Assembly (NCBI GenBank): GCA_964400145.1
Contig: CAYNTF010000005.1
Location: 2,176 to 66,175, forward strand
Direction: 5' to 3'
Source: an uncultured Lachnospiraceae bacterium
Lineage (GTDB): Bacteria; Bacillota; Clostridia; Christensenellales; UBA1242
Length of the DNA stretch: 64,000 nucleotides
The notes under the pieces are model-generated. The model was not told the origin of the DNA. It made no database searches and worked only from the letters and a program-made list of their open reading frames with translations. A program made the position numbers and the translations under genes. Of the stretch, positions 5,779 through 64,000 are shown in pieces. How positions within the stretch are numbered: the first letter of the stretch is position 1; the number at the start of each line of letters is the position of its first letter.

Positions 5779-5804
5779 ATTTTTAAATTCAAAAATGAAG
5801 ATGA

Positions 5805-29854: not shown

Positions 29855-29860
29855 ATATAT

Positions 29861-29889
29861 ATTTTACAAATTTACAAACAAATTTACAA
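29861..29889 (-). promoter_or_regulatory. Candidate promoter TTGTAA-17-TAAAAT, 6 nt before the RluA-family ATG
   Basis: On the minus strand, -35 is TTGTAA (29884-29889) and -10 is TAAAAT (29861-29866). ATATAT then precedes the ATG (29852-29854). No Shine-Dalgarno. Three TTTGTAAA direct repeats span the region. Confidence 0.4.
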
Positions 29890-29906
29890 ACAAAAAAGGG
29901 GTGAAA

Positions 29907-30732: not shown

Positions 30733-30884
30733 AAATAGTTTTTAGTGACATGAAAAATATGGACTAAAAGAAAGTTAAATAAGGACAAAATTCAGATTTA
30801 GACATTAATGGAAAAGATAAATAAGAACTTTTCGAATAAAGGTCAAAATAAACAAAACATAAAACCTTGAACTATGGGGAAAAT

Positions 30885-30925
30885 CAAAAAATATAGACAA
30901 AAATCTGTCTATATTTTTATTTTTC
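30885..30925. terminator. Bidirectional rho-independent terminator between the yabPQ operon (+) and tmk (-)
   Basis: ATATAGACA (30891-30899) pairs with TGTCTATAT (30906-30914). It is flanked by an A-run 5' and TTTTTATTTTT 3'. Confidence 0.65.
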
Positions 30926-33052: not shown

Positions 33053-33092
33053 CAGAAAAAAAAGAGGAATTTCTTAAAAATTCCTCTTTTTA
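33053..33092 (-). terminator. Rho-independent terminator of the giant gene (palindromic, could work in both directions)
   Basis: AAAGAGGAATTT (33061-33072) pairs with AAATTCCTCTTT (33078-33089) across a 5-nt loop. The U-run on the minus-strand RNA comes from the A-run at 33053-33060. It begins 13 nt after the TAG. Confidence 0.8.
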
Positions 33093-33104: not shown

Positions 33105-36100
33105 CTATTGCTTACTCATGTATTTTCGCTTCTCGTCTTGTTTTCGTCTTACTATCAAAATGATTATGATAATCAAGATGAGCAAGAGAAGCAAAATCAA
33201 GAGTAACCACAGCCACCACAATGAAGCTTTTGGTGCTTCCCAAACAGCGTAAAGAATGAGTGAGCCGAAGTCTACATAAATTGTTTCGCCGTCGGTATAC
33301 ACAACTTCACCGTCTTCGCTTGTCGCCCAACCCACAAATGTCATGTTGCCATTTGTGAATGTGTTGATTCTCAAAGTCACATATGTGCCATAATCAACCA
33401 CCTGCGAAATCCAAGCGCCGTCAATGTTTGGACTGTAATAGATGTATGATGTCGACTGAGTTACTTTCGCTGTCAAAGCAAAGTCGGTGGAGTATGCCAT
33501 GAACACATATCCTGAATCGCTGGAAGAATTTGGAAGAGTTATTGTGCTGTCATCCAACAACCAGCCGTCGAAAATGTAACCCGATTCTGTTATGACTGTC
33601 AACTTGATTTGTTTGCTATACACTGTTTTGTATGTGTATGTTTTTGTGTCTTCGTCATATTCACCAACCATTTCAAGATTTATCGAACTGTTCACACCTT
33701 CAACAATCACTGATGACACACCGTCCGTCAATGTCACTGTGAATGTCACTGACATCAAAGTGTAGTATATGCTTATAACTGTTGTGCCGTCACCGTTAAT
33801 TGTTATGCCATTTTCGTAATCGTAATCATCGTTGTCGTATTCATAGCCTTCAAACTCTCTTTGAATCCACTCATATATGTTAATCAGTGAACCCGTTGTT
33901 CCAGAGCCATCATTTCTGTCCAATTCAATAAACCTATTTGCATCTGGGTCTTCACCATAGTAGATGACTGTGTAAGTCACTTCTTCTGCTTCTGTGATTA
34001 ATTTCACTTCATAAGTTTCAATGCCTTCAATCACAAATTGCAATTCTTCATTATAATATCTTTCTCCGTCAATTTCCCAATAAGCAAATTTATAACCCGC
34101 TTGCAAGTTTGCAGTCAATGTCACGGTTTCACCAAAACTATATTCTCCCGCGCCACTGACAGAGATGACTTCTAATCCTTCAAAGGTCACAGTCACATTA
34201 ACAGTGACAGGTTCGTAGTATATCACTATTGTTGTTGAGCCGTCACCTGAAACTGTGATGTCGCCTGAATTGTAGGAGTATTTATAGCCATAAAGACTCT
34301 TCAATTCTTCCTCATCAAGAATGTCACTGATGTTTTCAACAAAGATTGAGTATATCTGTTCTTTGGTGAATTCTGTGTTTGTATAAGCAGAATATTCCAC
34401 TGACACAACAGTTGTCACTCCGTCCGTAACATGCATGATTGCATATTCGATTGTCACTTTGACTTCAACTTCTTCTGGTTCAAGTGTCAGGGTGACATTG
34501 CCTGCTGGCATGTCAAATACGATTGTGATTTCAATCGTTCCGTCTGCGCGTGTGGTTGACGAAAATTCAAAATCAATGTCTTTCGTTTCTTCGTCATCAT
34601 CATCGGTGACAAAAGTTAAATCAATTCCATCTTTATCCAGAGAGTATCCTGGTTTGACAACAATGGTGATTGTCACTTCATCGTCATAACGATAACTGCT
34701 GTCCACTGTCACACTGTCAATTCCGTCATGTTCAGTCGAGAAGTCTAACGAATATGAATTGCGGGTGAAATATGCGTTCACAACACTCGACCCGTCGCTG
34801 GCAATCGTTGTTGACCCTGTGATTTGTGGAGTGGCATTGAAGCCCGATATGTCAACATTTGCTTTGATTGCAGCAATGACATCTTCGCTTGTAATTTCAG
34901 AATTTGTTGTTCCTGTCATTTGAATTTCTTTATCTTTTGTGTAACCACTCAAATCGACATTTTGGAAGTGAACAATGATTGTGTATGGAGTGTCGTCGCT
35001 TTCTGACGCCGAAGTTGTTAATGTAACTTCGCCAGCAATCATCGTGAATTCATTGTCAGTAAGTTCAACATCTCCGCTTGTCACTGTGAATATCGCGTTC
35101 TCATACCCTTGGGCTGCGACGATTGTCAGCGTGACAGTGTCTTCATACAAGATTTTGTAGATGTTGAATTCGTCATTATCTTCACTTGCCTCAACCACTC
35201 CGTTTGTTGTTGTGACAGTGAAGGATGCAACGCTTTCTGACTTGTAAATTGTCAAATCATAGGTCTTTCGAGCAAAGTAGATGTTGATGACTGTGTCATC
35301 TCCAATCGTAACCGGACTTGCGTTGTTTTCGTTGCCTGAATCATATTCAAAGCCCACGATTGCAGTTTCGTAATCTGTATCTTTGATGAAACTGTTATAG
35401 ATTGTCGAAGCAGAAACACTTTGCCCATAGCCATATATGAAGTTTTCATCTGTGATTGTTTTTGATTGAGCGTCTTCGTATGTTCCGTCCAAGTTCTGCA
35501 TAATGATGTTCACGGTGAACGAAATCTGTCCCAATCCCCAATTCACATAGAGTGTCACAGTGTTGCCGTCGATTGCTGTCAATTTGCTCAACTCTAAGGT
35601 TGCGGTTTCGGAAGTTAAAATTAAGTCGATTTTGTTTCCATTATCATCGTAATAATACCAACCATAGAAGTAATGTCCAGCATATTCCCAATTCAAGTTC
35701 TCATCGGTGAATGCAGGAATGGTGACAGTTTGATTGTATTTGAATGTGCCTTCAAGTTTGTAGATTTGTCCGTTTTCTTCCGACGAACTCAACACAATCT
35801 CATAAGTAATCTCTTCCCAAATTGCATAAATTGGAACGATTACATCATCGTCGGTTGCCAAGTTGTATGCATAATATTTGCCGTCATAGAGATAAATTCC
35901 TGCGCCCTCGCCTTTGATGTATTCTTCGATTGTCGAATATGCGCCCAAGTCGTCTATAACAGTCACGCTTGAAGCTAATTCTGTCAAGCCCCAGCCGACA
36001 AACTTAAATCCTGTGAATTTGAAGCCGTCTGCGCTTGCAAGTTCAATAACTTCGTCATAAATTCCTTCAGTTGAAGTAATCTCACCTTCCGCGCCATTTC

Positions 36101-39100
36101 CGCTGTAATAAATGGTGTATTCGTTTTCTTTCCAAACGCCATACAGTGAAATGTTTTCTGTCACATTAGATATCGTGTCGCCAAATCTATATGCAATGAC
36201 TGGCTCTTCTGCATCTGCATCTTCTTTGGAAGTTGCCCAACCCAAGAAAGTTCTGCCGATGCTGGAGAATTCAAAGTCAATGACATAGTCTGTTCCATAC
36301 GCAATTTCTCTTGTCTGTCTTTCAGAATCTCCATTTTCCAAGTTAAGATTTCTGATGTATGTCAAAGTCAATCTCTCCATCAAAGTCTTGATTGTCACGG
36401 TGATGTCATTTGTACTTGACAAGGTGTATGTGTATGGACTTTCTGACAACACAACATCTGCTGAACCACCTGTGATTGTGATACTTTCGAATGTGAAGTG
36501 GTCTTCAAGTGCAAATGTGATTGTCAATGTGGAAGTGTATTGCACTTTAAATGAGTTGTTTGTTTCGGAATAGGTGTAGGTCTTTTGACCATCCGTTGAA
36601 GTGTATGTGATTGTGACAGAAGCCACACCATGTGCTTCAAACTCGCCTTCCAAGGCAATAGTCACATTATACGATTTGAGTGTGTAGTAAACCACTGCTT
36701 CGCCACTGCCGTCAGCCAGGATTGTTGCATCTTCTTCAAAGTATCCAAACTCATATCCTTCCATTCCATCGATTTGTATAAGTCCGGTCTCTGCATTGGT
36801 TTGTGTTATTGTTTCGCCCGTTGTGCCGGAGAGAACTGCGGAGCCCATTAAGTGTTCTTCACCGTTTATATCGATGGTGTAGTAATAGATTCTATACGAT
36901 GTGCCTGTGCTTGGAGTCCAAACTGCTGTGAGTGTGACATTTGAAGGTGTTGAAAGTGTGAATTCGTCGCCGTCAGAATATGTCTTTCCACTTGCGTCAA
37001 CCCAATGGCTGAATTCATATCCAGCATATGAGAATCTGTTGGCAATCAAGGTCACTGTGCCAAGATATTGCACTTCTTGCGTGTATGAGTCTGAACTGCC
37101 AAAAGTTCCGCCTTCTCCAACAAATGTGATTGTGTATGTTTCTGTTGATGTCGTCACATTGAGCGTCATATCTGCCGTGGTCATTGTGATGATGTTGTCG
37201 GCATATCCAACAACTGTTGCATCGCAATAGCCTTCGGTGTATTCCACAAAGACAACTTCAAATCTGACACCAAATTTAACTTTTGCAACAAGAGTTCCTT
37301 CTCCGTTTGAAGTGATTGAAATTCTGTCATCTTCTCCTGTGCCTTTCCATTCGTCAAGTGCCGAAACTGAAATCTCTTGCAAGCCTTGGTCATAGTTGAC
37401 TGTCAAGGTGAAGTATGCTCTTGTGTAGTAAACCTTAAACACACTGCCTTCTTCCATTTGTTCAATGGTCAAAATGCTTGAATTTGTGTCAAGGACATAG
37501 TTTTCAACACTTCCGGCTTCGATTGTCAAACTTTCGTCTTGTTCCGCACTGCCATTTTCAGTTCTGGTGTTTTCAAATTCGCCCGTCGCTGTTTCGAAGT
37601 AGTATTCAACCGTATAGTTAACATAAACAATGTTTGAAACCCAAACAGCATACAATGTCAGACCATATGTGAATGGATATGCATCGCCAGATATGTCGTT
37701 TTCGTCTGCAAATGTATATTCAACCTCACCTGCGTCTGCGTTTTCTTTCGTCAAAGCCCAACCAACAAAGTCATATTTATCTCTCGACCAAGAGAACTCA
37801 GTGTTTGTGATGTATCTTATCACATATGCTTCGCCATAGTTGAATGTTTCGCTATATTCAAGGTCGGAGCCATCTACATTGTAGTAATATGTGATTGTGT
37901 ATTTGATTGGATTGATGATTGGTGTAATTGTAACACTAGCGGCTGGCATTTTTGAAAGTGTGTATGTTCCGTCCGCATTCAAAGTGAGAGTGAAGAATGT
38001 GAAGTCATACACGCCTTCTGAACTTTGTTCAACTGTCAAAGTTTCTGTGTCGCCACCAACTGTCACTTTCCAACCGCCAAACTCATAACCACTTTGCAAC
38101 TGGATTGTGATTTTCAAAATGCTTTCATAGTATGCACGGTAAGTTCCAGAAACAGATTCCATGCCACCTTCGATTGCTTCCGCTGTGAGTGAGTATAGAC
38201 CTTTGACATCTGTGTCAAGCACAAACTCATAGTGCAGTCTTGAATAGTAGACTGAAATCACTGTGTAGCCTGCTTCGTTTTCGCTGTATCTGATGACAGA
38301 ATTTGAATTTCCAAGTCCATCAGTCAAATCTGAGAAACCAAATCCTTCAAATTCTTTGTATGCCTCGATTGATTGGAGATAGGCTTGTGTCACGATTGTG
38401 TCGGTCGTTCCTGTGAACACAAATTTTGAAGTGCCATTTTCTTCGTAAAGTGTGTATTCCGACGAAGTGAAGCCTTGCAAGTAGTATTCAACATAGAATT
38501 TTGCCTCGCCCGCTTCCGTTTCAATTTGAACGGTGACATCGCCGACAACCGTGAATGTGCATTCCGAGCCACTTCCTGTGTTCTCTGCACCTGTGACAGT
38601 GATTGCTTTGAAGTTATATCCAGCAACCAAAGCACTGCTTGCATTGATTGTCACAGTGTCGCCATAATTTACGGTTATAAGTGTTGCATAAGTGACAACT
38701 GAATTGTTGACCATGATGACAAGTCCGCTGGTGTCTGTTCCGACATCTGCGCTTATAATAAGGTTATAACCATTTGCCGTCCAAACTGCATAGAGGTCAA
38801 CATTCTCTTGATAAGTTCTCAACACAAAGTCAGCACCATCGATGTATGTGACAATTCCATCATCTGCATCTTCTTGGGAAGTTGCCCAACCTTGGAACTT
38901 ATATCCTTCTCTTGTGAATTTCGCAGAATCAAGTTTGACTGTTTCAAGGTAAGTTGGGTTGGTTTCTTGCGTGTATGAGTCTGAGTTGTCATATGTTCCG
39001 CCATTACCATGGAATGTGATTGTGTAGGTCTTTGCCGAAGCGGAAAGTGTGATTGTCACCGCTTCTGCTGGCATTGTGAAGGTGTCTTCTGTAATTTGAA

Positions 39101-42100: not shown

Positions 42101-45100
42101 CCAAAACAACTGTTGCGCCGTATTTAACCGTGTAGGTTATTGTGTTTTCAGAAGTTGTTGGATTGCCAACATATCCGCTTGTTGCTGTGAGGCTTTCAAC
42201 ACCTGTGGTTGTTTGCAATGTGAGTGTATACTCAATTCTTTCAAAATATACATTAATGACATTTTCGCTTTCAGTCGCTGAAATCACGATTGAATCTGCG
42301 CTCTCAAATCTGAAGCCTTCCAAAGTTGCATTTTCAATTTCTGTAAGAATGTCACTGCGCCCAACAGTGCTTCCAACTGTTGCACTTCCTGTCGCTTGTG
42401 CATCTTCGTCTTCATCATATCCGCCAGTGAGTGATTCATACCAGAATTTGATGACATAATCTCTGGATTGCGCTGTCACATTGATTGTGAACACCATGTC
42501 TGATGTGATGTTGAAAGTGTAACCATTTACATATGTGTAATCACCAATCGAGAAGCTTTCAAATGTGTATCCGTCTTCCATAGTGGCAGAAATTGTGACA
42601 ACTTGATTATATTTATAAGAATCTTGTCCAGAAGTTGTTGCCACACCCGTTGGAATTGTGAATGTCACAGTGTAAATCTTTCGAGTGTAATACAACTTCA
42701 AAGTGAGAGAACCGTCGCCTTGAACAACGCCTTGCAAAATGTTGTTTTCATTTGTCAAATCAACTTCAAAGCCTTCATATGAAACTTGTTCAATCGTCAC
42801 ATTTGCACCTGTGGTGCTGGTGATGATATCTGTGTGTGTTGTCAACTCAACATCTGTAATTTCTGTGTCAAGAACAAATGTGCCATTCAATGTTTCCAAG
42901 TAGTATTCCACTTTATAAGTTGCTTCGCCAACATTCCAAATTGCGTAGATAGGCACTTCAACACCACTTTGTGTTGTCAAATTGAAAACATAATATATTC
43001 CGTTATACAAGTAAATTCCGCCGTTTGCACCCGTTGCAACCAAATATTCGCTGACAGTGGTGTATGTGTCACTGCCACTTGTCAAACTGTCAATCTCTGT
43101 TGCATTCGAAGATGTGCCATTTGTTGTTGCCCAGCCAAGGAATTCATATCCTGCGAGTGTTGGTGTTTTGGTGATTTCGAGCGCTGTGTTATATGTTGCT
43201 TCAACACTTTCGATTGTGCTTCCACCGTTGGTTTCAAATCTCACTGTGTATGAAATTTCGCTCCAAATTGCATATATTGTGCAACTGTCATCATTTTCTT
43301 CGCCTGTTGCAAGGTTGTATGCATAATATTTGCCGTCATAGAGATAAATTCCTGCGCCCTCACCTTTGATGTATTCTTCGATTGTCAATGAGCCCAAGTC
43401 GTCGATAACAATCACGCTTGAAGCCGATTTTGTCAAGCCCCAGCCAGCAAATTCATATCCAATTCTGACAAAGTCTGAGCCGTCACTGATTTCAATAACG
43501 CTGTCATATTCCGCCGTTAATGAAGGAATTGAGGCGTCACCGTCGTTGCCGTCATAATTTATTGTATATTCATTTGCTTCGATGTTGACAGTGATTGTCA
43601 AGTCACCCTCAGTTTGATATTTGTAAGAAAGTGTTTCGTTTTGACCAATAACTGCTTCGCTGATTGTCCAACTCACAAAGTGATATCCTGTGTCAGTTGT
43701 TGCTGTCAAGTTCAATAATTCGTCATATTCAACATTGTATGTTCCGTCTGCGTTGGCAGTCTTGCCGTCAACAACAACAGAAACATGGTCTATGTTGGAA
43801 GTTATCGTCAATTTGTATGAAGCCGTTCCCCAAACCGCATAGATTGTTTGCCCGCTCAAACTGCTGCAAAGATTTTCATCTGTCACTTCATTGCCGTCTT
43901 CGTCGATCCACTTCACGAAAACATAACCATCTCTTGAAAGCACGATATCAGAAAGTGAGAAGTATGCATCGTTTTCGCCGATAACTTGTGAAATGTAGAG
44001 TTTTGAATAATCTTCGCCGTATGTTGCATAAAGAGTGATAACTCCGTCCGTTGCAGTCAAGTCGTCACTGCCAACTTTTGCCGTTGCTGTTGTTGAACCA
44101 TTCGAGAAGTTGACATCGTTCAAATTAAGCACGAGTTCATATCTGTTTGCAGTCCAAAGAGCAGTGATTGTGTCGTTGCCTGCGCCGAAGGTGTAGGTGT
44201 ATGTGATTGAACCGTCAGAACCATTAGATTGAGTTATTGTCCCGTATGCACTGCTGGATATGCTCCAACCTGCAAAGGTGTATCCTTCTTTTGTCGGTGT
44301 TGCCAAAGTGTATGTTGTCTTGTAGTTCTGTGTGACTGTCACACTGCCTGTTTGTTGTTCGTATGTGCCACCATTTAATTCGATTGTCAATGTGCATGGA
44401 TTGATTGTGGCATTTGCTGTGATTGTCACATCTCCAAGACCCATTGTCACTGTCTGCAAACTGTTGTTTGTGAGAACAAATCCTGTTGGTGTCACTCCGC
44501 TTACAGTGTAGTTGTTCCAACTGTATCCTTCTGCCACTATTGCTTCGATTGTGAAGCTTTCGCCATAATACAATGTTATTGTGCTTGTGTATTCTTCCTC
44601 GTCAATCTCAACGCTTGAAATTCCTTCTTGTTTTTGGATTGTCAATTCGTATTGATTTCTTGAGAAGTATAGGTCAACTCTTGTGTTTCCGTTTGCACTG
44701 ACAGTGTATGTTTCCAAGTTACTTGTTTCTGAGTCGAACGAGAAGCCGTCGAAAGAGTATGTGACGCCATTGATTGTCACTGATGTTTCTGTTGTGGTTA
44801 TCGTCAATTCTTCTCCGGTTGTTCCGTCTGTTCTTGTGTAGTATGTTGTGTAAGTGCCATAACTGCCAGTTGTGTCCATTTGATAGATGTAAACATAGTA
44901 GATTGTGTCTGTGTTTGCCACCCATTGTGCCTCAAATGTGACATCTCCATACATACCAGCAGATATTGTTGTTGTGTATACAGTGTCAACAACAAACGAA
45001 CCGTTTGACGATGTCACTTTCCAGCCAGAGAATGTGTATCCTTCTCTTTCCACTGTTGCAAGTGTTATACTGCCTTCGATTGTGTATGTTGTGCTGTGCC

Positions 45101-48100
45101 CTGTCGATGTGATTGTTCCTTCGTTTCTTTCGTATGTGATGTTGTAAGTAATCGCTGTGTATGTCACCTCAACTGTCACAGCCTGTTTTGGCATTGTGCC
45201 AGAAACTGTTGTTTGACTTGCTGTATAACCCGTGATTGTTGGGCTAGTGAAACTGTATGATGCATTATATTTGAATTCTTGAGAAACACTTTCGTATGCT
45301 TCACTGCCGTCTGCATATTGATATTTAATTGTCAAAAGGAAACTGTCGATTGTCCAATATGCATAGATGACTGTGTTATCATTTGCAGTGAGGAAACTTG
45401 TCAAGTCTGTCACTTCAACTTCGTTTGTTAAGCCGTCAGCAGTGATTTGTGTTGTATACCAGCCCGCAAAGGTGTAGCCATCACGCGTTGGAACCAAACT
45501 TGAAAGTGTAAACGAATCTGTTGCCGTTGAACTGAGATAAAGTTGTGCATAAGTGCCACCATACACAGCATAAACTTCAATAGTTCTCAAAGTTGCTGGG
45601 TCTGTGGTGTCATCATTCAAATTCAGAGTCACCTTATATCTGAGTGCTGTTGCCAAAGCAGTGACATTCAACGCATTGTTTGGCATTTCAAATGGATTTC
45701 CGTCAACTCCGCTGAATCCTGCTGTGACATAACCTTCTTCCGCTGTTGAAGTGAGTGTCACTTGTGCGCCATATTGAACAAGATAAACTTTGTTTTCAAC
45801 ATCATCTTCGGTGATATCCGTAACGCCAGTGCCACTTGCAGACGCGCTCTCAATTCCAACACCCATTTCCAAGGTCAAGGTGTGTTCTGCGCGGGTGTAA
45901 TAGTATCTCACTACAGTTGTTCCGTCTGCCGAGATTATCACTGTTTGTGTTGTAGGTGCAACAAAACCTGTCAAACTCAAAACTTCAGGAGTGATTTGTG
46001 AATCTGCCAAAGCGTAGTATGTTGTTGACAAAGTTTCATCGTTATATGTGGTCACCAATGTCCAATTTCCACTTGATGTATCTCCATATTCACCAACATT
46101 TGCGGTGTAATGATACACTTTATATTCAACTTGACCGTATGTCCAATATGCGAAGATAATTGTGCTGTCTTCTGCTGTTGCAAAAGATGTGCTTGCAAGA
46201 ACTTGCGACCCTGTAATCCCGCCATTAAGCATAATTTGACTTGTATAGAAGCCCTCAAAGGTGTAGCCATCTCTTTGAACTGTGCTTGCTGTCAAATCGG
46301 CAAGGCTGATATACTCATCACCCGTTCTTGAAGTATACATTGTTGCGTAAGTGCCGGCGTATTGAACATACAATTCGATTGTTCCGTTGGTGATTGTCAG
46401 GCTGACATCGCCAATCGTTATGCTTTCAACTGCTGTCGTTCCGTTGCCTGCTGTGACATCGTTGAGATTGAGTGTCACTTTGTATCTGTTTGCAGTCCAA
46501 AGAGCAGTGATTATGTCGTTGCCTGCGCCGAAGGTGTAGGTGTATGTGATTGAACCGTCAGAACCATTAGATTGAGTTATTGTCCCGTATGCACTGCTGG
46601 ATATGCTCCAACCTGCAAAGGTGTATCCTTCTTTTGTCGGTGTTGCCAAAGTGTATGTTGTCTTGTAGTTCTGTGTGACTGTCACACTGCCTGTTTGTTG
46701 TTCGTATGTGCCACCATTTAATTCGATTGTCAATGTGCATGGATTGATTGTGGCATTTGCTGTGATTGTCACATCTCCAAGACCCATTGTCACTGTCTGC
46801 AAACTGTTGTTTGTGAGAACAAATCCTGTTGGTGTCACTCCGCTTACAGTGTAGTTGTTCCAACTGTATCCTTCTGCCACTATTGCTTCGATTGTGAAGC
46901 TTTCGCCATAATACAATGTTATTGTGCTTGTGTATTCTTCCTCGTCAATCTCAACGCTTGAAATTCCTTCTTGTTTTTGGATTGTCAATTCGTATTGATT
47001 TCTTGAGAAGTATAGGTCAACTCTTGTGTTTCCGTTTGCACTGACAGTGTATGTTTCCAAGTTACTTGTTTCTGAGTCGAACGAGAAGCCGTCGAAAGAG
47101 TATGTGACGCCATTGATTGTCACTGATGTTTCTGTTGTGGTTATCGTCAATTCTTCTCCGGTTGTTCCGTCTGTTCTTGTGTAGTATGTTGTGTAAGTGC
47201 CATAACTGCCAGTTGTGTCCATTTGATAGATGTAAACATAGTAGATTGTGTCTGTGTTTGCCACCCATTGTGCCTCAAATGTGACATCTCCATACATACC
47301 AGCAGATATTGTTGTTGTGTATACAGTGTCAACAACAAACGAACCGTTTGACGATGTCACTTTCCAGCCAGAGAATGTGTATCCTTCTCTTTCCACTGTT
47401 GCAAGTGTTATACTGCCTTCGATTGTGTATGTTGTGCTGTGCCCTGTTGATGTGATTGTTTCATCTGTTTTCGTGTTATATGTGATGTCGTAGGTTGTTG
47501 CTTTGTAATATACAGTGATTGTGACATTGTCACCATTAATCACACCGCTGATTGTTGCCTGTGCACCATTCACAAGTTCATACGCTGTGATTGTTGGGCT
47601 TGTCACACTGTAACTTTCTCCATGTTCCAAAGTTTCAATATAACTTGTGTATATAGTTGTCCCTGTTGTTTGGTTGTAGTAATTGATTGTCAATGTGTAT
47701 TCTATTCTTGAATAGTAAACATACACAGTTGATGTTCCGTCACCTTTAATTTGAACACTTGAGAATGTGTTGTCACTTTGCAAAACGCCAAATCCAGCAT
47801 ATTCAAAACCTGTGACAGTTGGAATTGAGCCACCGTTTGCTGTTTGAATCATTTCAAGTGAGATATAACTTTCGGTTTCTCCTTCACCTGTTGTCGCAAA
47901 ATCACTTGACAATGTTGAATCTTCCACAAAGGTGTCATCCAAAGTTTCGAACAAATAAACAATGTTGAATTTTGTGTCAGAATTTTTTGTTGTATATGCT
48001 GCAAGTGTCAATTCACCCGCTGGCATTGAGAAGGTGTAAGAATACACTCCTTCACTTCCTTGACATTCACTTGCCGTGATGTCACCCATTATTGCCGTAT

Positions 48101-51100
48101 TGGAAGAAGTGAAACCAGCAAATGAATATCCCGCATTTATCGTTGCTGTGATTGTCACCAATTGACCATATTGATAACTGTCTGAACCGCTGACAGTGTC
48201 AATTCCATTGTCATAAGTTGTGGCAACCACTGTTAATTGATATGTGTTGCGTGTATACCACAAATTGATGACAAGGTCACCTGTGTTGATGACAAGTGTG
48301 CTGTTGTCTGTGCCATTTGTGGTGTATCCATTATACTCAAAACCTGTGAAGCTTTCAATCAATGTGCTGATTGTGATTGTTGAACCTGTGTATGCTGTCT
48401 TTGTTGAGTCCGTGTAAAGAGTGTAGTTTGTTGTGTTGTATTCACTTCCAGCACCAATATTTTGTTGATAAATGTTCACTGTGAACTTAACTTCTACTGC
48501 CGTCCAAATTGCATAGAGTGTGACTGTGTCAGTGCTGTCAACATAATTCCACAAATCTGCAATCGTTGGAGTGCTTGTGGCTTGGTATACAACCGAACCC
48601 GTTGCACTTGTTGCCCAGCCCGCAAATTCATAACCTTCGCGAGTGTATACACCTGAAAGAACGGCATTTTCACTCTCATATTTCAATGATTGTGATACCA
48701 ATTCCTGAGATACAACTACTGCTGTGCCTTGATAGTTATCGTCATTTGCGTCAAGATTGAGTTTGTATGTGTTTTCGCTCCAAACAGCAAAGATTGTGCA
48801 AGTTTCATAGCCTTCTGCACCTGTTGCCAAGTTGTATGCATAATAAGTGCCATTATAGAGATAAATTCCTGCGGTGCCAACACCTTTGATGTATTCTTCG
48901 ATTGACGAGCATGAACCCAAATCACTAACTTCAATGGCATTTGAAGTTGTTGCACCTTCTTGTGTTGACCAGCCAATGAATGTGTATCCTGTGCGGTCAA
49001 AGTCAACTTCTGTCAATGCTTTTGGCGTATCATAATAAGCCTCTGTTCTTGGCATAACCCCATTTCCACCATTTGAATTGTAAATGATTGAATATGAGTT
49101 TTGTGCCCAAACTGCATAGAGAGTGAGCCCGTATGTGAGATTATATTGCTCGAATGAATATTCGTCTTCATAGTCCACATTTCCAGCATTTGCATTTTCT
49201 TGAGATATAGCCCATCCCCTGAAAACATAACCGTCTCTCACAAATTCATTTTCTGGAAGAGTGAGAGAATTGAGATATGTCACTGTGACTTTCTCCATTG
49301 TTCCACTTGTTGAACCATTTCCGTCGAATGTAATCTCAAATTCTCTTGGATCTGCTGTTGCCGTCAATGTAACTTCATCGGAAGGCATGTTGAATGAATA
49401 TTGTTCAGTGCTTCCAACTTGTGTGATATCCCCACTTGCAAGTCCCGAGTCAATTCTCCAACCAGCAAATTCATAGCCAGCAGAAGTTAATGTATATTCA
49501 ATAACAACTTTAACATTATACATCACTTCATAAACATTTGAAGTTTGCCCATCGTCGCCAACAACCGTTTGAGTTATTCCCGTTCCTGTCTCTGCGGTCG
49601 CCGATGCCACACCTGTGCTTATGTTGATTGTCAAAGTGTATGTTTCGCGAACATAATACAGATTGATGACAAGACTTTCGTCACCGTCAATGTTGAGATT
49701 GCCACTTGTCACCGGAGTTGAACCATTTGTGGTGGAAGTTACGGTGTAATATGAATATCTCATCCCCTCAAATGTGATTGCATTGTATGTTGAAATTGGT
49801 GCCAAGGTGTCAGTTGTGCCAGTGCGAGAACCTGAAGGGTCTGTGATGTCATATTCATCAAATTCACTTGCGTGAACAAAATTTCCGTCCACTTGTTGAA
49901 CATAATAGTTCACTGTGTATTTCGTGTTGGTGTTTGCAGTTGCTGTTGCCGTCACCACCAAATTGCCGGCTGGCATACCAAACGCACTGCCACTGACAGT
50001 CACTTCTGTTGACCATGTCCAGTCGCTCACAGAATTGATTGTGTAGCCATCCTTTGCCATTGCTGAAAGTGTGACAGTTGCACCATATTTCACTGTGTAA
50101 ACGCCATTTCCGTCGGAAGTAAGTCCTGTTTCTGCGCTTGCTGTGATTGAACTTACACCTGTGCCTGCAACAAGAGTTAAGGTGTATGTTTCGCGAACAT
50201 AATAAATCTTAATGACAAGACTTCCGTCGCCGTCAATGTTGAGGTCGCCGTTTGTCACCTCACTTGAACCATTTGTGGTGGAAGTTGCGGTGTAATATGA
50301 ATATCTGAACCCTTCATATTCTTTTGAAGTGTAAGTCAAGATTGAAACATTTGTGTCGGTTGTGCCCTTGGTTTCGTCGCTGGAAACTGTTGACTCGTAA
50401 GTGAACGAACCATCAAGTTCTTCCAAATAATACATCACCGTGTATTTCGTGTCAATGTTTGCACTTGCCGTCGCTGTGAGATAAACGCCAAGATTTGCTT
50501 CACCCATCGTGAATGAATTGCCTTCATCTGAAAGTGTAAACACATTGTAATTAGAATCAAATACCCAATTATCGAAAGTATATCCCGCTTTTGGAGTTGC
50601 TGTCAGTGTGACAGTTGCACCATACTTAACCGAATAAGTTGTTCCAGAAACAAGTTCAACTCCTGTTCCACTTGCACTCACACTATTCACACCTGTGCTC
50701 GCTGTCAAAGTCATAGTGTAAGAATTTCGCGTATAGAAAGCATAGATCAGCGTTATACCCAAAGTCACATTTTCACCGGTGCTTTCATCAGTGGTAGTTT
50801 CACCCCCTGGACTTGCCTGAATTATATCACTTTGATATTCATAATATGCATAAGTGAAACCTTCAAATTCATATTTATTGATGTAATTTTCAACTTGATC
50901 TGCAATCAAAGCATTGCTGTTTACTTCAACTCTATACACAGTGTATGTTCTTTCAACACCGTCTTCACCTGTGTAATTGATTTTGTCACCCACTTTTGAA
51001 ACATTTGTTGGATATGAGTTTCCTTCCGATGGATAAGCAAAATCATTTTCATCTTCGTCGGTTGATATGTCTTCAATAAGATAATAAACTGTGTATGTGA

Positions 51101-54100
51101 TGTCATTTCTTCCAATCCAAGTTGCATAGACAGTCAATGAACCAGTTTCATCCATTTCTTCAAAGTATGAAGCATCGCTTGTCAAAATGTCGTCACCACT
51201 AATAAATGTCGCTTCAACTGTTTCAACTTCCACAAGGTTTATTGTTGGAACTGCAACACCTTCAACCAATTCGACCGTCACATAAACATATTTTGTTGGT
51301 TCAGTTGTCCAAGTGTCGTCCTCATCTTGTTGTCCACCACGCACAAAAATATACTCTGAACCAATTTCGCTTTCAGTTAATGCGCCTTCCATACTGAGAT
51401 AAGTTGTAAGTGCAAGAGCGCGATATGAATTGCTTGTTGACCAACCAGCGAAGTAGTAACCCGCAAGCGCTGGCGTTGGCCAAACAGATTCACCAAACTC
51501 ATAGCCATATCTTACAGTTGTTTTTTCTGCCGAAATAGTAACTGTTCCGACTTCTGGTTTTGTGGTTTCAGTATTAAAATATACTGTATATTCTTTTGCA
51601 GAATATGTGGCAACAACAGATCCACCCGTATGATTAATGAATATCATATTTGCGTTGAACAATGGAGAGTTCGCCACACCATATCCGCCACTGTCAATGT
51701 GAATGGAATTCGCATTTTCGCTTCTTCCATAGAAACCAATCAATTCGTATCCTGTTATTTCATAAAGTGATAAGTCAGTGATAACTTGCTTATTTTCATA
51801 GGATGCGCCATAAGTTAATTTAAGTGTCTGAATCACAGTTTCGTTGTTTTGGGCATAAACTTTGATGTCGTATGTGTTTGCTTCCCAAACAGCATAAAGT
51901 GTGTATGTTCCGTTTGATTCGCTTGTGAAGTTTGGTGTTGTCAAAGTTTGCCCAGCAGCGTATTCTGCTTCTGTTGCATTCTTTTTCGTTGACCAGCCAA
52001 GGAATTTATAACCCGTCAAAGTGAAGTCGTTGCTTGCAAGGGTGACATTTTCGTCATAAGTTGCCTCTGTCGATGGTGTCGAGCCTGACGCTGTGCCATA
52101 AAGCGAATTTCCATTGGTGGATGTTTCACTGTTCCAATCATAAACGATTGTGTATGAGTTTTGTTCCCACACAGCATAGAGCGTCAAATCTTCAGCCGTT
52201 GTGAAGTTGATTCCAACTCCGGCAGTGTATTCTGCCGATGTTGCACCTGCTTGTGTTGACCAGCCAATGAATGTGTATCCCGTTCTTGTCCAGCCCATGC
52301 CGTCGGCAGTGGTGTTGTCAAGAACAGTGTATGTGCTGTCAAATGTTGCGCCGTCTGTATCCGTGTAAGTTGTTCCACTTCCGCCATTGGCGTCGTAAAT
52401 CACATCATAAGTGTTTGCCGTCCATTGTGCATAGAGCGTCAAATTTGTTGTGGTGCTTTGTGTGTATTCTTGCCCACTTGTGTATGTTGTGCCATTGCCG
52501 TCAGCCTGCGTGTTCCACGATGAGAAAGTATAGCCAGTGCGTGATGCAATGCCCGAACCATTCAAAATTGTTGTGCTTTCCGCAAAGGAAATGCTCACTG
52601 TTATAGATGTCAAACCAGATGAAGTGCCGTCAGACAGCGTTCCATTGTTGCCATAGTATGTGATTGTGTATTTATTTGCCACGATCACTGCTGTGACTGT
52701 CAGATTTCCTGCTGGCATTTTAAATTTGTTGTCACTTATCGTTGGAAGTGTTGCTGAACTTGAACCAGTCCAAGCCACCGTCCAACCTTCAAAGCCATAG
52801 CCTGTTTCAAGTCCGGTGTATGTGAGTGCCACTTCGGCAGTGACTTTGACGGTGTAGGTCGAATCACCAGATTCACTCACGCCAGCACCGCTTGCTGAAA
52901 CAGAGCCAAGATGTTCATCGCCCACCAAGGTGAGAGTGTATGTGTCAAGAGTGTAGTATACATAAAGTTTCAAACTGCCGTCACCGTTGATGTTTCCAGA
53001 AATGGTCGACAACTCTGAGTTGTAATGATAGTTTTCATAAGTTCTCACAGTGGCTGTTGCCGGTGTGTCGGTTGTGCCTGTCAATTCTTCGGTCAGAACC
53101 AAATCATATCCGCCCGCCAAGTTTTCTTGATAATGATATACTGTGTATGCTGTGTCAGTGTTTGGAGTTGCCACAATTCTTATTGTAATGTCAGAGTCTG
53201 GCATGTTATACCATCTATCGCCTGATGCCTGACTTTGATCCCAATATGTATAATTTCCTTCGTCAACAATTTCAATTTTTTCAAAAGTGTAACCCGCTGA
53301 AATTTCGTAGTAAATATAGATTGCGGAATTATAGTAAATTGTGTAAACATTGTCACTACTTGTTGAAGGATAAGAAGTTGTAACTGAAACACTATCAACA
53401 CCTTTGTCAGATGTCAAAATGGTCAATTCAAATGTTTGTCTTAAACTATACAAGTCAATGATAAGATTTCCGTCAGCAAGAACAATAAATTCGCCATCAA
53501 CAGTGTTATTTGAAACTGTGAGAGATGAATCATACACAAATCCGTATGTCGATACATCAAGACTATATTCAACTCCATTTATTGTTGCGACATTTTGACT
53601 TACACTGATTGAAACTGCAGAATCGGTCAATGCTGTTGTGTTGATTGTTTTTTGAACCTGGAATGTTCCGCCGTCGTTTATGGCGTAATTATTTATCCAA
53701 TATCGCACTGTCACTTGCACTTCGGTTGCAGTCCAGATTGCATAAAGTGTCACTGTGTCACCATCAACATAATCCCACAAATCTGCAATCGTTGGAGTGC
53801 TTGTGGCTTGGTATACAACATCGCCGTTTGCACTTGTTGCCCAGCCTGCAAATTCATAACCTTCGCGAGTGTATACACTTGAAAGGTCAGCTTTTTGCGA
53901 TTCATATTTCAACGATTGTGTTGTCGATTTTCCAGAAATGATTTCTGCTGTGCCTTGATAGTTGCTGTCATTTGCGTCAAGATTGAGTTTGTATGTGTTT
54001 TCGCTCCAAACAGCATAGAGCGTCATATTATATGTCTTGTTGTATGTGAATGATGCACCGTCACTATATGTTGCCGTTGTGGCACTTTGATTCTCAGACC

Positions 54101-57100: not shown

Positions 57101-60100
57101 CCGTGATTGTCACTGTTTGTTCACTTGGTGCTGTAAACCCGGTGATTGTAATCAAAGGTGCTGTCACTGTGCTGTCTGTTGTGCCATACAGTGTTGAACT
57201 GCTGTGCAATGTGTAAGTCGTTGCACCCAAATCTTGAATGTAATAGTTGACTTTATACGCCGTGTTGGCATTTGCTGTCCAATATGCGTAAAGAGTCACC
57301 GCTCCGTTTGTCGTGTTGGCATTGCTGAAATATGAAGTGCTTGCCACGATATCGCCGTCTGCGTCAATAATTTGAGTTCCCGAACCAATTTTTCCTGTGT
57401 AATATCCTTGGAATGTGTAACCTTGATATGTTGGTGATGTGATTGACGAAATTGTTGTTCCGCTTTCATTTGTCCAATTCGTGTCAAACACAACTTTAAT
57501 CACTGTTGTTCCAGAAGATGTCACCGCACTTCCTGTGGTGTCAGTTGTGGAAGAATAGTATTTGCTGTCCAAGTTCACTGTGTATGTGTTTGCTGTCCAT
57601 TGTGCATACAAAGTGTGGTTTTCAAAGTTTGTCACTTCCGTTGTTGATGTGACTTGAGTGCCCCAATCTCCGTTGGTGCCGTCTTTTGTCCACCAACCTG
57701 CAAAAGAATATCCCGTTCTTGTTGCTGTTGCAAGAGTGCCATAAGTGCCGTTGAAAGTTACATATTTTGATTCCATAGTTGTCACGGCGCTTGAATCCGT
57801 GATGTTGACATCAAATGTGACAAGAACTTGGTCTGCACTCCATTTTGCATAGAGAGTCACATCGCCAGCATAGATCCAACCACCATTGCTGTCTGTATAT
57901 CCGCTCACACCAGCGATGAGAACGCCACCATTTGTGATAACCTGCACGCCATAATCTCCGTCAGTGCCGTCTTTTGTCCACCAACCGTCAAAGGTGTATC
58001 CACTCATGTTTGCAGTTGGAGCGACAGTTGATCCTGACACACTGTTTGGATAATCTGCTGATGTGCGAGAAGTATAGAAAGTCATTTCAGAGTATGCGAT
58101 ATATGCAACACCATTGTTAGAAACTGTGGCTGATGTTGTGCTGTCACCTTCGTTTGAATCTAATGTGACTTCATAAACATTCTTTTGCCATTGAGCCGTC
58201 AAAGTTGCGTTGCCCGCACCGAATGTGTAGTACATTGAAGAATAAACAACATTTCCTTCACTGTCCACAATCATAACCGCTGCAACATCAAAATCCATTG
58301 TTTGAGTGACAGTTGTATCACTTGCAAGGTCTGCAGTGTAAATTTCAAGTCTTGGATTCGTTGAACTGCTCGTTGAACTTTGTGTATATGTGTCACTTGT
58401 TATGGTTCTTGTCATTGTGATAAGCACCCAACCTGCACCAACATTTGACGCACTAAAACTTTGTGCAACGCGACCTGTTGTTCCATAGTCGTTTGAGATG
58501 ACCGAATGGCGAAGATTGAGAGACCCAACATTGTCAGCCACATTCAATCTAATCAAGAAAGTTATGGTGTATGTTTCTCCAACTTCGTATTCATACACAG
58601 GATAACGAATATTGTACCAAGTGCTACTTGTTCCCGAAGTTCTTGTGAAGTAATAATTTGTATATACAAGTCCAGATCCACCATTTGTTAATGATGTTGA
58701 AGATGATGTAAACCCACTTGTTGAATTTGCACCACTATCACTCAAACTTCCAGCGCCCGTCAATGTCCAGCCAATGAAGGTGTAGCCTTCGCGTGTTGGC
58801 GTTTCCAAATTGTAGGTTGTGCCATAGTCTTGCGTCACATCTGTTGTTGAAGTTGTGCCGTTGTATGTTCCGCCATTTGGATCGATTGTCAAGGTGTATG
58901 AAATCGCTGTCCAAATTGCTGTCAATTTCACATTTCCATACATTCCCGTGAGAGATTTTCCAGATTGATAGGTTGCTGTGCCCCAATTATATTCGCCGTT
59001 ATCAACAGCGCTTGCCGTCCAACCGCCAAAGGTGTAGCCTTCCTTGTTCGCACCAAGCAATGTTCCTGTGCTCTCGGTGGTGTAGGATGTCAAACTTCCG
59101 CTGGCAAGCGTTCCGCCGTCGGTATCATATTCGATTGTATAATTGTTTGCTGTCCATTGAGCAGTCAAAACTGCATCATCCGCACCAAAAGTGAAAGTTG
59201 TTCCACTCAACGAACCTGAGCCTGTAAGTGTCCAATAACTGAATGTATAAGCTGTGCGCCCTGTTGGATTGGAAACTGTCACTGTGGATTGATAATATCC
59301 CTTCACAACTGTCTCTCCTGTGGAGTTGTTGTATGAACCGCCACTTGGGTCGATTGTCAATTCGTATTGCAAGCGTTCGTAATAGAGTTCAAACACTGTT
59401 GTTCCAACAGCAACGCCGTCAACATATTCTGCCGTGATTGTTTTTGTTTCGCCAAGGTCACCACTTGCATATTCAAAACCCTCGCCAACAGTGACAGGCT
59501 CAACGCCCACCACTCTGCTTCCAATTTCAGCCTGCATTGTTATCGTCTGACTTGGAGTGGAAGAATATGCTCCGTTAGTGTCCATGATGTAGATTTTATA
59601 TGTGTAGGTAACTTCTGTCGTGCTTGCAGAAACAGAAAGTGTGACTGCATTGTTTGGCATTGAGAATGTGTTGTTGGACATTGAAGAAATTCCGCTGACA
59701 ATGCTGAAAGTTGCATTTGTGTATCCAGCCAAAACTGTGGCAGAAACAGTGATTGATTCGCCGTAATAAATTCCGCTTATTGTTGCAACGCTTCCAGATG
59801 TTGAAATGCTCAAAGATGATCTGCTTCCACTTGTTGCTGTGACAGTGTCAATTCCCGTGCCGATGTTGATTGTCACAGTGTTCGAGTTGCGTGTGAAGAG
59901 AATGTATATGTTAAGACTTCCGTCTGGAGAAATTTTCAAAGACCCCGTGTTTGTCACAATGGTTGAATATGTTGAAAGCACGGTGTAGCCTGTGAAAGTT
60001 CTGCTTAAATAAGTTTCCAAATCACTTGAAGTCAATGTTTCGTCACTTGAACCTGTTCCTGTGGCGTTGCCAAGTTCGGAATAGTTGCCTTGGCTTGCAT

Positions 60101-63100
60101 AAGTGAAACTTGTTGAGCCACTTATTGCCGCAGAAAGAGTCTGTCCCATGAAATGAACAGTGAATACAGTGTCTTCATTTGCCTGCCAAACCGCATAAAG
60201 CGTGGTTGATCCCGAAGTGATCAAGTTTGAAATTGTTGTTGTTGAAGTGTAGTTTGAACCACTTGAAGTTATTGTTCCATTTGAAATTCCAACACCAGAC
60301 ACAAGTCCTGTTTCGCTTGTTGACCAACCAATGAAGGTATATCCCGTTCTTGTCACTGTTGTTGTGAATGTTCCTGACAAGTCATAAGTTGCTGTCAATG
60401 TGTTCTCAGAAGCCGTCAAGTTGGAACCCGCAGATAAACTCACAATCGTTCCGTCGTTGCCGTCGAGAGTGACTGTGTATGTGTTTGCTTCCCAAACTGC
60501 ATAGAGCGTGACATTTGCCCCTGTGCTAAGGTTGCGGTAAGAAACGCCAAGGGAGTATGAAACAGCTCCATTTTGTTGCGTGCTCCACCCTATAAGTGTG
60601 TAGCCCGTGCGTGTGAAATTTGTGAACGATGTTGCACTTCCAGCCGATGTCGCCGTTGGAAGAGTGTAATAAGTGTCATACACAGCGTTTATCGTTCCCG
60701 CACCAGTGTTTCCGCTGTTGTTGTTGAATGTGATTGTGTAGCTATTTGCCGTCCAGCGAGCATACAATGTGTGTGCGCTTGCCGAAAGGATTGTTGAACT
60801 GTTTGTCACTTGCGTGCCCCACTCTCCGCTCGTTGAGCCGTCAGCTGTCCACCAACCTGCAAAGGTATATCCATCACGCGTTGGACTAAGAAGTCCGGTG
60901 TTGTCACCCTTGTTTGCCCCAATCGTTGCGTAGGAAGATGGAGAAGTGGTGTCACCATATTTAACATACCAAACCGGGTTAGTTGAAGAAGATGTGTATG
61001 TTGTGCTGTTGAACGAAACATTTGATGAGCCAAAATCAACATTCAAATCAAGTGTGACTGAAACATACTCTGCTTCCCAAATTGCATAGAAAGTGATTGT
61101 GTTTCCGTTGGTCAATTCACTGGAAGAAAGTCCCAAAGCCGAGATTGAAGTTGGGAAGGTTATCGTTGTTGAATCAGCGCTCAAACTCCAACCCACAAAG
61201 GTGAACCCTGTTCTTGTGAATCCATTTGTTGGGCTTGAAATGCTTTCTGTGTATTCAACCGTCAAATCGGTCATACTTCCGCTTGTTGCACCGTTGCCAG
61301 CAAAAGTGATTGTATATGAATTTTCTGTCCAATTTGCATAGAGTCTGTGATTGCCTACCGTTGACACAATGGTGTCCGCTGTCACTTTGGTTGTGCAAGA
61401 CGATTCAAGATACCATCCTTCAAAAACATATCCTGTGCGAATTGCCGTTGCCAAAGTGCCATATGCTGAATCATAATAAACATAAATTGTTTCAGGACTG
61501 ATTGTTGTGCTGTCAGTTGTGTTGCTGTCAAAGGTGACAGTGTAGCGCTCTGCATCCCATTGAGCAACATATATTCTGTTTCCAAGACTTTCTTGTGAAA
61601 CGCTGGTCACAGTGTCAGACGCTGTGATTGTGAAGTTCGTCCTTACAGACGCACTTGCACCCCATGGCAAAAGAATGTAAACAACAACATCTTGACTTGG
61701 AGTGTAGGATATTGCTGTCACACTTCCAATGTAAGAGCCGTCAAGAGCGAAAACTCTCCATCTGAAGTTTGAACTGTCAATTCCAGAAGCAGTGTAAGTT
61801 ACGCCTGATCTCAGAGTGATTGGTGTCAAATAGACTGCACTTGTATATTCTGAACGGATAGCATACATACCTGTGTCTGCATTGATAAAGCCAGTGAAAT
61901 AATCATTTTCTCCCCAAACAAAAGTTTCTTTCCAACCTGCAAATGTGTAGCCTGTGCGAGTTAATGTTGCAGTGCTTGTGGTTGGCAAGTTCAAGTTTGG
62001 TGAATCGCTTTCGGTGTATGTATACCCCGTTGGAGTCAAATCGGAAGTTTCATTTCCTTCATTCATATCATATTCAATGTTGTATTTATTTGCTTCCCAA
62101 ACTGCTGTGAGAGTGACATTTCCCCACATGTTTGAAAGTGATGCCCCAGCAGAGTATGTGCCCGACCAATTTCCAGCCGATACACTAACTGTCCAGCTGG
62201 TCAAGGTGTAGCCAAATTTGCGAATGCTGTCTGCCGAAAGAAGAGTGAAACTTTCCAAAATAGTGAATTCTTGTTCGTAATCTCCTGTTGATTGTCCCAA
62301 ATTCACCCAATATTCTTCATTGCCGAGATCATAGGTGATTTTGTAATCCACATAGTTATAATAAAGGTTGATGACAAGATTTCCAGAACCGTCAATCGTC
62401 ACTGAGTCATTTTCGTTGTTGAATGATGTTGTGCTTCCAGATGTGATGTAGTATGTGCCGTGGTCAAAAGCATATCCATTGATACTGCCGATGATATCCA
62501 AAACATCTCCCAAAGTGATTGTTGTGTCTGTGATTCCATCCACACTTCTGGTGGTGTTGATTGTATACCCATCTGTTGTTTGAGTGTATGTGTATATTGT
62601 GTAACCAACATTTTGTGCAGTTGCCGAAATTGAGAGATAATACCCTGATTCATATTTGTAAGTGAAACTGTAAGAAATCGACGCCCCGTCACTGCTGATT
62701 GTTCCGCCTGTCGTCGTCAAACTTGATGACGAAGTGCCCATTTTGAACAAATCTGTCGTTTCAAATTTGTAGCCAGTCTTTGCTGTTGCTGTCACAACGA
62801 TTTCGGAGTCATAATCAACTGCAACATTTCCACTTGTGGTGTAGGTTGTTGACGAGCCATCAATCGAAATTGTCAAACTTGCAACGCCTGTGCCGATTAT
62901 GTAGTTGAAATTAGATGTTTCTGCTGTCCATTGAGCAGTCAAAACTGCATCGCCCGCACCAAAAGTGAAGGTTGTTCCACTCAACGAACCCGAGCCAGAA
63001 AGTGTCCATCCAGCGAAACTATAACCTTCGCGGGTTGGTGTTGCCAAAGTGTAGGTTGTGCCATAGTCTTGCGTCACTTCTGTTGTTGAAGTTGTGCCGT

Positions 63101-64000: not shown

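Follow-up and report, generated by a model that had tools for sequence, protein, structure and literature searches.

A 30.9-kb gene from an uncultured gut Clostridia bacterium encodes a giant modular protein with a predicted C-terminal membrane anchor

Results

A single frame of 10,297 codons

We analysed a 64,000-nt stretch of DNA (the window) from contig CAYNTF010000005.1 of the uncultured bacterial assembly GCA_964400145.1, in which one giant gene stands out. The minus-strand frame of this gene is open from base 63998 to a TAG stop codon (plus-strand CTA at 33105-33107) and comprises 10,297 sense codons with 0 internal stops, so that it takes up 30,896 of the 64,000 bases (48% of the window). 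An earlier reading of the letters alone (the original prediction) had described a stop-free minus-strand frame from base 64000 to this TAG, filling about 48% of the window, and both descriptions were borne out. From the base composition, the chance of an equally long open frame is ~10^-310. The gene and the hairpin that follows it are:

33105..63998, minus strand: giant predicted surface protein, partial coding sequence; 10,297 codons plus TAG, with the 5' end beyond the window
33059..33091, minus strand: terminator-like hairpin with a 15-pair stem and a T run, 14 nt past the stop codon

Terminator-like sites in the region number 3, against 0.3 expected from shuffled sequences. Automatic listing of open reading frames (ORFs) gives the gene as 33105..63920 (minus strand, 10,271 aa) with a GTG start, and that start was listed merely because it is the first start codon inside the window edge. 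The 26 codons before GTG 63920 read IYAQWSANPITITLNQTNATTTGTTS, then V, which is the end of a repeat; the GTG is thus internal, as had been proposed on the same grounds.

The window-encoded part of the protein has a molecular weight of 1.119 MDa and a pI of 4.05, and its composition (T 16.2, S 10.2, G 8.9, Y 8.4 and V 7.4%) agrees with the Thr/Ser/Gly/Tyr/Val-rich product that had been predicted. The GC content at third codon positions (GC3) of the giant gene is 0.38, versus 0.36-0.44 in neighbouring genes. Recent horizontal acquisition of the gene is unsupported, given a GC3 like that of the neighbours and a locus that is syntenic in relatives, and an alternative genetic code for the window was ruled out, since the neighbouring genes are intact under table 11 and carry strong motifs like ribosome-binding sites. 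As a separate observation, the giant gene (33105-64000) holds 0 homopolymers of 7 bases or more, which may just follow from the low Lys and Phe content of the protein. The 30.9-kb ORF is one genuine gene and native to its host, a relative of Candidatus Caccovivens among the gut Clostridia.

Two interleaved repeat families cover the protein

Profile searches placed the recurring unit in the Listeria-Bacteroides (InlB B-repeat) family. PF09479 (Flg_new) matches the giant protein with E=1.4e-156 and 1.5e-117 (509 and 384 bits; cut-off 27), NCBIfam TIGR02543 matches it at 78.6 bits (cut-off 20.95), and PF18998 (Flg_new_2, the divergent InlB B-repeat) matches over residues 4701-9600 with E=1.9e-40 (137 bits, cut-off 23.6). 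A Pfam scan of ten 1,000-aa tiles returned 38 Flg_new matches, ~20 Flg_new_2 stretches and 2 MucBP matches, with Flg_new-type matches in every tile. The MucBP matches are:

45156..45332, minus strand: Pfam MucBP (PF06458) match, residues 6223-6281; E=5.5e-06, 27.5 bits, above the cut-off of 23
47502..47696, minus strand: Pfam MucBP (PF06458) match, residues 5435-5499; E=2.4e-4, 22.3 bits, slightly below the cut-off of 23

These two stretches are paralogues and represent a short module that is distinct from the 26-copy family described below. The three families for which a check had been proposed in the original prediction (PF09479, PF18998 and PF06458) were therefore all found above cut-off, although for PF06458 the true matches number only two, and one of these is the 22.3-bit match.

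For a census of the modules, an iterative profile was seeded on the best Pfam Flg_new stretch, a second profile was used for the gaps, and overlaps were then resolved. The Flg_new-seeded profile picked up about 85-89 modules (median length 99 aa), including the Flg_new_2-type modules and both Pfam MucBP copies. The gaps of 50-95 aa between Flg_new modules make up a second homologous family of 26 copies, ~85 aa long and interleaved with the first, with the motif Y-x-V-x-Y ... G-T-T ... G-F-x-Y ... D-G-x-x-V-x-x-Y-Y. After overlaps were resolved, 111 modules (85 Flg_new-type and 26 second-family) covered 94% of the protein. The original identification of the recurring unit as the Listeria-Bacteroides repeat is thus upheld by PF09479 and TIGR02543, but this repeat is not the sole unit, as the second family alternates with it.

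MucBP was considered as a label for the 26-copy family and was dropped, which leaves the family unassigned. The motif resembles MucBP by eye only; PF06458 recognises one of the 26 copies at E=0.068, and MucBP_2 likewise one at E=0.11. Comparison of the second-family profile with the PDB gave chance matches to antibody light chains alone. In a self-comparison of the whole protein, the internal repeats showed a median identity of 33%, which marks them as old repeats that differ from one another in their DNA.

Inserts, the predicted C-terminal anchor and a modelled tile

Three stretches lie outside the repeat profiles, namely insert 1, insert 2 and the last 40 residues. These, together with a tile chosen for structure modelling, are located as follows:

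58227..58688, minus strand: unique insert 1, residues about 1771-1924; single copy, all-β, tentatively a jelly roll like those of carbohydrate-binding modules (CBMs)
50760..51398, minus strand: unique insert 2, residues about 4201-4413; acidic, non-repeat, without a Pfam match
49899..50771, minus strand: modelled tile, residues 4410-4700; Flg_new_2-type, second-family and Flg_new_2-type modules in that order
33150..33221, minus strand: C-terminal transmembrane helix LWWLWLLLILLLLLILIIIIILIV, residues about 10260-10283, from Kyte-Doolittle hydropathy
33108..33149, minus strand: short basic tail RRKQDEKRKYMSKQ, predicted to be cytoplasmic; ends ...MSKQ and is kept in orthologues

The segment LWWLWLLLILLLLLILIIIIILIV is the sole Kyte-Doolittle window above 1.6 in the whole giant protein. 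LPXTG, NPXTG and LAXTG motifs were absent near the C-terminus, the sole motif match being LPTTS at residue 671. Of a sortase-type layout, the hydrophobic segment and basic tail are in place and an LPXTG-type motif is absent; the anchor takes the form of a membrane helix rather than a sortase signal.

Insert 1 has no match in Pfam or NCBIfam and one homologue, in P0254. An AlphaFold2 (AF2) model made from the single sequence had a pLDDT of 53 (low confidence), and Foldseek ranked CBM16 and CBM4 jelly rolls highest among its matches (E about 1e-3, TM score about 0.4), so that insert 1 may be CBM-like; we treat this as a lead. Insert 2 has a counterpart in orthologue P0356, residues 1124-2018 of which align to residues 3731-4656 of the window protein.

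The tile spanning residues 4410-4700 was modelled by AF2 with a 22-row alignment of paralogous tiles, and this gave an all-β model with three domains in a row (pLDDT 90.2, pTM 0.77). Compared with the PDB by Foldseek, the three-domain tile matched PitA, SpaC, SpaA, TIE and the MucBP-containing YwfG, with low TM scores that we attribute to the multi-domain geometry. These proteins are elongated Gram-positive pilins and adhesins, and the matches fit a multi-domain rod while leaving the fold of the individual module unidentified. Neither this three-module tile nor a tile of ten repeats gave any match when searched by sequence against the PDB. The modelled tile supports a predicted rod of the beads-on-a-string type.

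Orthologues at the same locus

The corresponding loci of relatives were located via homologues of the flanking DAP_DH_C-like protein. In GCA_051888935.1 (Ca. Caccovivens sp.), a giant of 8,914 aa lies directly upstream of the DAP_DH_C-like gene, and a Logan contig from a separate run holds the same gene. At the same position in GCA_964405555.1 (L082), ORFs of 6,082 and 1,662 aa are parted by a run of N (around 4800-4860), for a total of at least 7,744 aa. JGI contig Ga0080708_1000319 (L084) carries a Zip-family gene, ORFs of 3,063 and 6,326 aa and then the DAP_DH_C-like gene. The contig of the closest relative, GCA_964594865.1 (L078), begins inside the final 60 nt of the giant (...YMSKQ*; L078:1-60). 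In GCA_051888935.1, L082 and L084 the giant adjoins the DAP_DH_C-like gene and tmk.

The two L084 ORFs are 5 nt apart in different frames, and a one-base frameshift lies at AAATTAAA (L084:9940-10060). As the frameshift interrupts a normal repeat end, we read the pair as one gene of about 9,390 aa. The same split could be taken as a sign that the gene is decaying or phase-variable and yields no single polypeptide in vivo, for instance through slippage. This we hold to be very unlikely, as an error in sequencing or assembly accounts just as well for the L084 frameshift and the window gene runs for 30.9 kb without a stop, a frameshift or a homopolymer of 7 bases or more. Across the independent assemblies, the visible parts of the orthologous giants have no stops; in-frame stops of this sort were what the original prediction had said would tell against the gene.

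The orthologues are collinear with the window giant over 2,900-4,300 alignment columns (E=0) at 31-39% identity. When L080, L082 and L084 were compared with window positions 31802-64000, the DAP_DH_C-like flank was 88-90% identical versus 31-39% for the adjacent giant. Lengths differ by thousands of residues (8,914, about 9,390 and >10,297 aa), these being different species, not strains. The C-terminal transmembrane helix is shared by L080, L082 and P0356, and the chains end in ...KQKYMSKQ (L078), ...KLMSKQ (L080), ...KYMSKQ (L082) and ...MMAKQ (P0356). From the collinear, stop-free orthologues, the shared helix and tail and the identity of 31-39%, we conclude that the giant gene is real, positionally conserved, length-variable and very fast-evolving.

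Two further observations concern the C-terminus. The tail ...(Y/L/M)M(S/A)KQ is kept in all orthologues despite the 31-39% overall identity, and the helix of the orthologues always opens with WW(L/I)W or FWLW. This conserved tail could serve as a recognition motif for a partner.

At the other end, the orthologues begin with a signal peptide (e.g. MERMRRGMLYFILMGMFLLTAGVGTFKLAANN), followed by a shared non-repeat head of about 300 aa. The head contains short repeats and a conserved WDF(E/Q)(N/D)KW motif, matches no Pfam family, and looks β-solenoid-like in its sequence pattern. Residues 2094-3876 of P0259 (a 3,971-aa N-terminal fragment from a Clostridia metagenome-assembled genome, MAG) align to window residues 44-1751 at 31% identity (E=5e-133), and position about 3,068 of the JGI L084 giant aligns to window residue 814. 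These two agreeing alignments suggest that about 2,050-2,250 residues would lie upstream of the window, which would put the full protein near 12,300-12,550 aa; the estimate fits the 19.2 kb of the 83,220-bp source contig outside the window, if these are on the upstream side. That the true N-terminus lies beyond the window, as first proposed, is borne out by the signal peptide and head of the orthologues. Together with the C-terminal helix and its positively charged tail, the orthologue signal peptides point to a surface location.

Integrity of the assembly

In a protein made of repeats, such a long ORF might be an assembly artefact, either a chimera of shorter Flg_new genes or the outcome of repeat collapse or expansion, and the metagenome-type assembly leaves room for this. 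Tandem Repeats Finder (TRF) detected no tandem DNA repeats in the giant gene. Direct DNA repeats within it reach no more than 86% identity and stay below 260 nt, with the exception of one 90-nt pair (93%) and one 1-kb pair:

46483..47492, minus strand: near-identical repeat copy A, residues about 5503-5839; the sole near-identical internal DNA repeat
44140..45146, minus strand: near-identical repeat copy B, residues about 6285-6620; pairs with copy A

Copies A and B share 98.9% DNA identity over 1,010 nt; at the protein level they are offset by 781 aa and 98% identical across 219 aa. This pair is the only spot at which short reads could have been assembled into too few or too many copies, and it speaks for the artefact explanation, as do the breaks in the relatives' assemblies (contig end in L078, run of N in L082, frameshift in L084). 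Set against these, the absence of TRF tandem arrays and the median repeat identity of 33% indicate that the ORF is not a product of repeat mis-assembly. A chimera would be very unlikely to hold a single frame open for 10,297 codons, and long collinear alignments connect the window gene to giants that occupy this locus in three independent assemblies and share its C-terminal anchor. We consider an artefact highly improbable.

Neighbouring genes and host lineage

Around the giant gene, the window holds genes for ordinary Bacillota housekeeping and sporulation functions (tmk, a pseudouridine synthase gene, comEC, pgk and yabP/yabQ). The best named matches of Pgk are from Candidatus Caccovivens sp. 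(74%) and Clostridia, and a Ca. Caccovivens sp. MAG carries a counterpart, 90% identical, of the DAP_DH_C-like gene that adjoins the giant. For the tmk protein, a 2.8-kb Logan contig was found in run SRR7039263; for the DAP_DH_C-like protein, no encoding contig was found. Caccovivens corresponds to GTDB genus UBA11517 in family UBA1242 of the Christensenellales, comes from chicken faeces, and has a type genome of 1.1 Mb. The yabP/yabQ genes sit between the pseudouridine synthase gene and tmk at about 29860-30920 of the window (cf. L001:1830-2655), and their presence indicates that this small-genome lineage retains at least part of the sporulation set.

A second very large gene lies 5 kb from the giant gene, followed by a smaller gene with a similar lipobox:

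17653-28128, minus strand: large Ser/Thr-rich protein (3,491 aa); signal peptide of lipoprotein type, MKKIGIMAMSILTCIIGFVLVGC
16722-17555, minus strand: 277-aa protein with a similar lipobox, after the 3,491-aa gene

The 3,491-aa lipoprotein has no Pfam or NCBIfam match along its full length. Its orthologue in the closest relative has 3,457 aa and is 55% identical, compared with 77-90% for the housekeeping neighbours. Just upstream of the lipoprotein gene, positions 28310-28495 form a very AT-rich, low-complexity intergenic region with short tandem repeats, which is probably its promoter or leader region; GC is about 0.30 across 28-30 kb.

Relatives of the giant protein and the rarity of its class

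A HMMER search with the first 1,200 aa against 1.84 billion representative proteins returned 31,432 relatives at E<=1e-3, and the longest among the best 150 of these has 6,841 aa; the window protein itself was not returned. When the first 600 aa were used in a homologue search, the matches were only 24-53% identical and all of 1,049 aa or less. With the same 600 aa, no close N-terminal orthologue was found in GTDB genomes and JGI metagenomes (best identity 38% over long and 46% over short segments), and a 59-mer from the window edge had no exact match in the genome or metagenome contig collections. Among 76 GTDB loci, two Clostridia MAGs have a frame open across the entire 22.6-kb locus (at least 7,500 aa), and in three of 80 metagenome loci a frame reaches 5,000 aa or more. 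The two open-frame MAG loci, L006 (BRZ_PH bin59) and L017 (BRZ_CQ bin29), contain Flg_new; both of their ends are unseen, and they may exceed 10,000 aa.

Predicted proteins of 10,000-30,000 aa with the Listeria-Bacteroides repeat have been reported from gut Clostridia, and adhesion was suggested for them (West-Roberts et al. 2023, 10.1101/2023.11.21.568195). The statement in the original prediction that bacterial proteins above 10,000 aa are rare thus agrees with the 6,841-aa maximum among the best 150 relatives, but this report shows that the class has precedent: such lengths are rare yet known for it. With 10,297 codons, Clostridia neighbours and the repeat present, the window gene is a further member of this already noted class of giant gut-Clostridia repeat proteins.

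As assemblies break or err in such genes, metagenome counts of giant genes are probably too low. At the locus studied here, the gene is damaged differently in each assembly (frameshift, run of N, contig end), and gene callers give 3,063+6,326 aa, 6,082+1,662 aa, or nothing.

Discussion

On balance, we favour the view that the window gene is native and encodes a Sec-exported, membrane-tail-anchored, fast-evolving surface stalk of more than 10,297 aa that resembles a fibrillar adhesin. An N-terminal signal peptide, as in the orthologues, would direct the chain to Sec export. Outside the cell it would fold into a row of small β-rich modules, about 111 by our count. At ~3.5-4.5 nm per module, as in solved MucBP and B-repeat domains, the stalk would be several hundred nm long. 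The single C-terminal helix would act as a stop-transfer anchor and leave the basic tail in the cytoplasm. Binding might then fall to the non-repeat parts, that is the distal N-terminal head and possibly insert 1, which is the most tentative step of the proposal. Divergence and segmental duplication, and possibly gene conversion as well, would alter the length of the stalk. The differences in sequence and length seen among the orthologues are as expected for an exposed antigen or a receptor-matching adhesin, and either could be the selective cause. The original prediction of a fibrillar adhesin or coat fibre is therefore supported as to surface location by the helix, the basic tail and the orthologue signal peptides; adhesion by the giant fibre, or a coat role, is something that we infer.

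The main rival accepts the same protein and topology and makes it non-adhesive, as a surface shield, spacer or envelope-structural element; we think it possible but distinctly less probable. As a shield, a dense acidic brush hundreds of nm deep would keep phages, host factors and other cells off, a picture to which we give the same limited credence. It would suit a very acidic protein (pI 4.05) that has no known adhesive domain in 10,297 residues, and one that resembles Ebh of S. aureus, which sterically hinders clumping, in its C-terminal membrane anchoring and size of about 1.1 MDa. The second large lipoprotein (3,491 aa) 5 kb away suggests a heavy investment in the surface layer. Against a shield, the orthologues place a separate non-repeat head at the end away from the membrane, as fibrillar adhesins usually do, and insert 1 has weak CBM-like structural matches. 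Moreover, Flg_new and MucBP are both linked to surface proteins that bind hosts or glycans.

Several points also weigh against the adhesin-like stalk that we favour. No recognised adhesive domain was found in the 10,297 window residues with Pfam and NCBIfam, and the CBM-like view of insert 1 comes from a low-confidence model (pLDDT 53) and weak Foldseek scores. Pfam fails to recognise the second family as MucBP (1 of 26 copies, E=0.068), and for the predicted β-grasp fold the PDB sequence searches came back empty. The N-terminus of the window gene is itself outside the window, the signal peptide being seen in orthologues. The closest relative's assembly breaks within the giant gene, and the copy number of the 1-kb block is uncertain because the block exceeds typical short-read inserts.

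The gene offers a clean, checkable case in which more than 30 kb of bacterial coding sequence is no assembly artefact, and it comes from a small-genome lineage of gut Clostridia that has barely been studied. With orthologues at one conserved locus, it can be used as a natural system for the growth, shrinkage and divergence of stalks, and the protein can help to explain the export of a chain above 1.1 MDa and its retention by one membrane helix. The giant gene (predicted ~37 kb) and the 10.5-kb lipoprotein gene together would be roughly 4% of a ~1.1-Mb genome. More speculatively, and we think this improbable, the protein would be a half-micron tether essential to an attached life on host mucus, food particles or microbes, and the MSKQ tail would mark a dedicated anchoring or export partner. 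If so, it would be the longest fibre of β-grasp modules described, and would stand at the centre of the group's ecology.

Comparison with known systems

Monzon et al. (10.1101/2021.12.07.471604) list Flg_new among the stalk domains of fibrillar adhesins. The window protein shares with these adhesins, and with the InlB B-repeat of Listeria, the Flg_new stalk module, on which Pfam and TIGR02543 agree, and, with the head seen in orthologues, the order of distal head, stalk and anchor. Its 111 modules at 94% coverage constitute such a stalk, and its C-terminal helix and basic tail such an anchor, set in the membrane and not in the wall. It differs from typical fibrillar adhesins in being ten to a hundred times more repetitive, in lacking LPXTG, GW or any other wall anchor, and in having no recognised adhesive domain in its available part. 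A periscope protein was also considered and was ruled out by the median repeat identity of 33%, the absence of tandem arrays and the single 98.9% pair over 1 kb.

Ebh (GSSP) of S. aureus, of about 1.1 MDa, has its C-terminus held in the membrane and interferes sterically with clumping, and roles in cell size, envelope integrity and steric masking have been proposed for it. The likeness lies in the mass of about 1.1 MDa and in a rod of many tandem modules, which in Ebh is frequently truncated or variable between strains; given that it has no sortase motif, the window protein would stay membrane-anchored as Ebh does. Ebh is built of helical FIVAR/GA-type modules. The window protein, in contrast, is all-β and of Flg_new type, and Pfam found no FIVAR or GA helical repeat at E<=0.1 in any of the ten tiles; the two are analogues, not homologues.

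The Giant1-5 surface proteins of Apilactobacillus kunkeei (3,000-8,000 aa) are encoded in a five-gene cluster (PMC12863079). Like the window protein, they are very large, elongated extracellular proteins from a small genome that diversify rapidly, in their case via recombination, and they have an N-terminal β-solenoid head. The repeat families and the lineage are different, the window holds a single gene, and a solenoid head is suggested here by the sequence pattern of the orthologues. The giant gene would equal about 3% of the 1.1-Mb Caccovivens type genome.

The closest parallel in kind is the West-Roberts class of Clostridia giants, which likewise come from Clostridia of gut type, exceed 10,000 aa, consist mainly of Listeria-Bacteroides repeats and have been proposed to act in adhesion. 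West-Roberts et al. 2023 cover the class in one paragraph and leave it undissected. To that class, the window gene adds a C-terminal membrane anchor, an interleaved second repeat family, a conserved Caccovivens-like locus, length differences among orthologues and an extreme divergence relative to the flanking genes.

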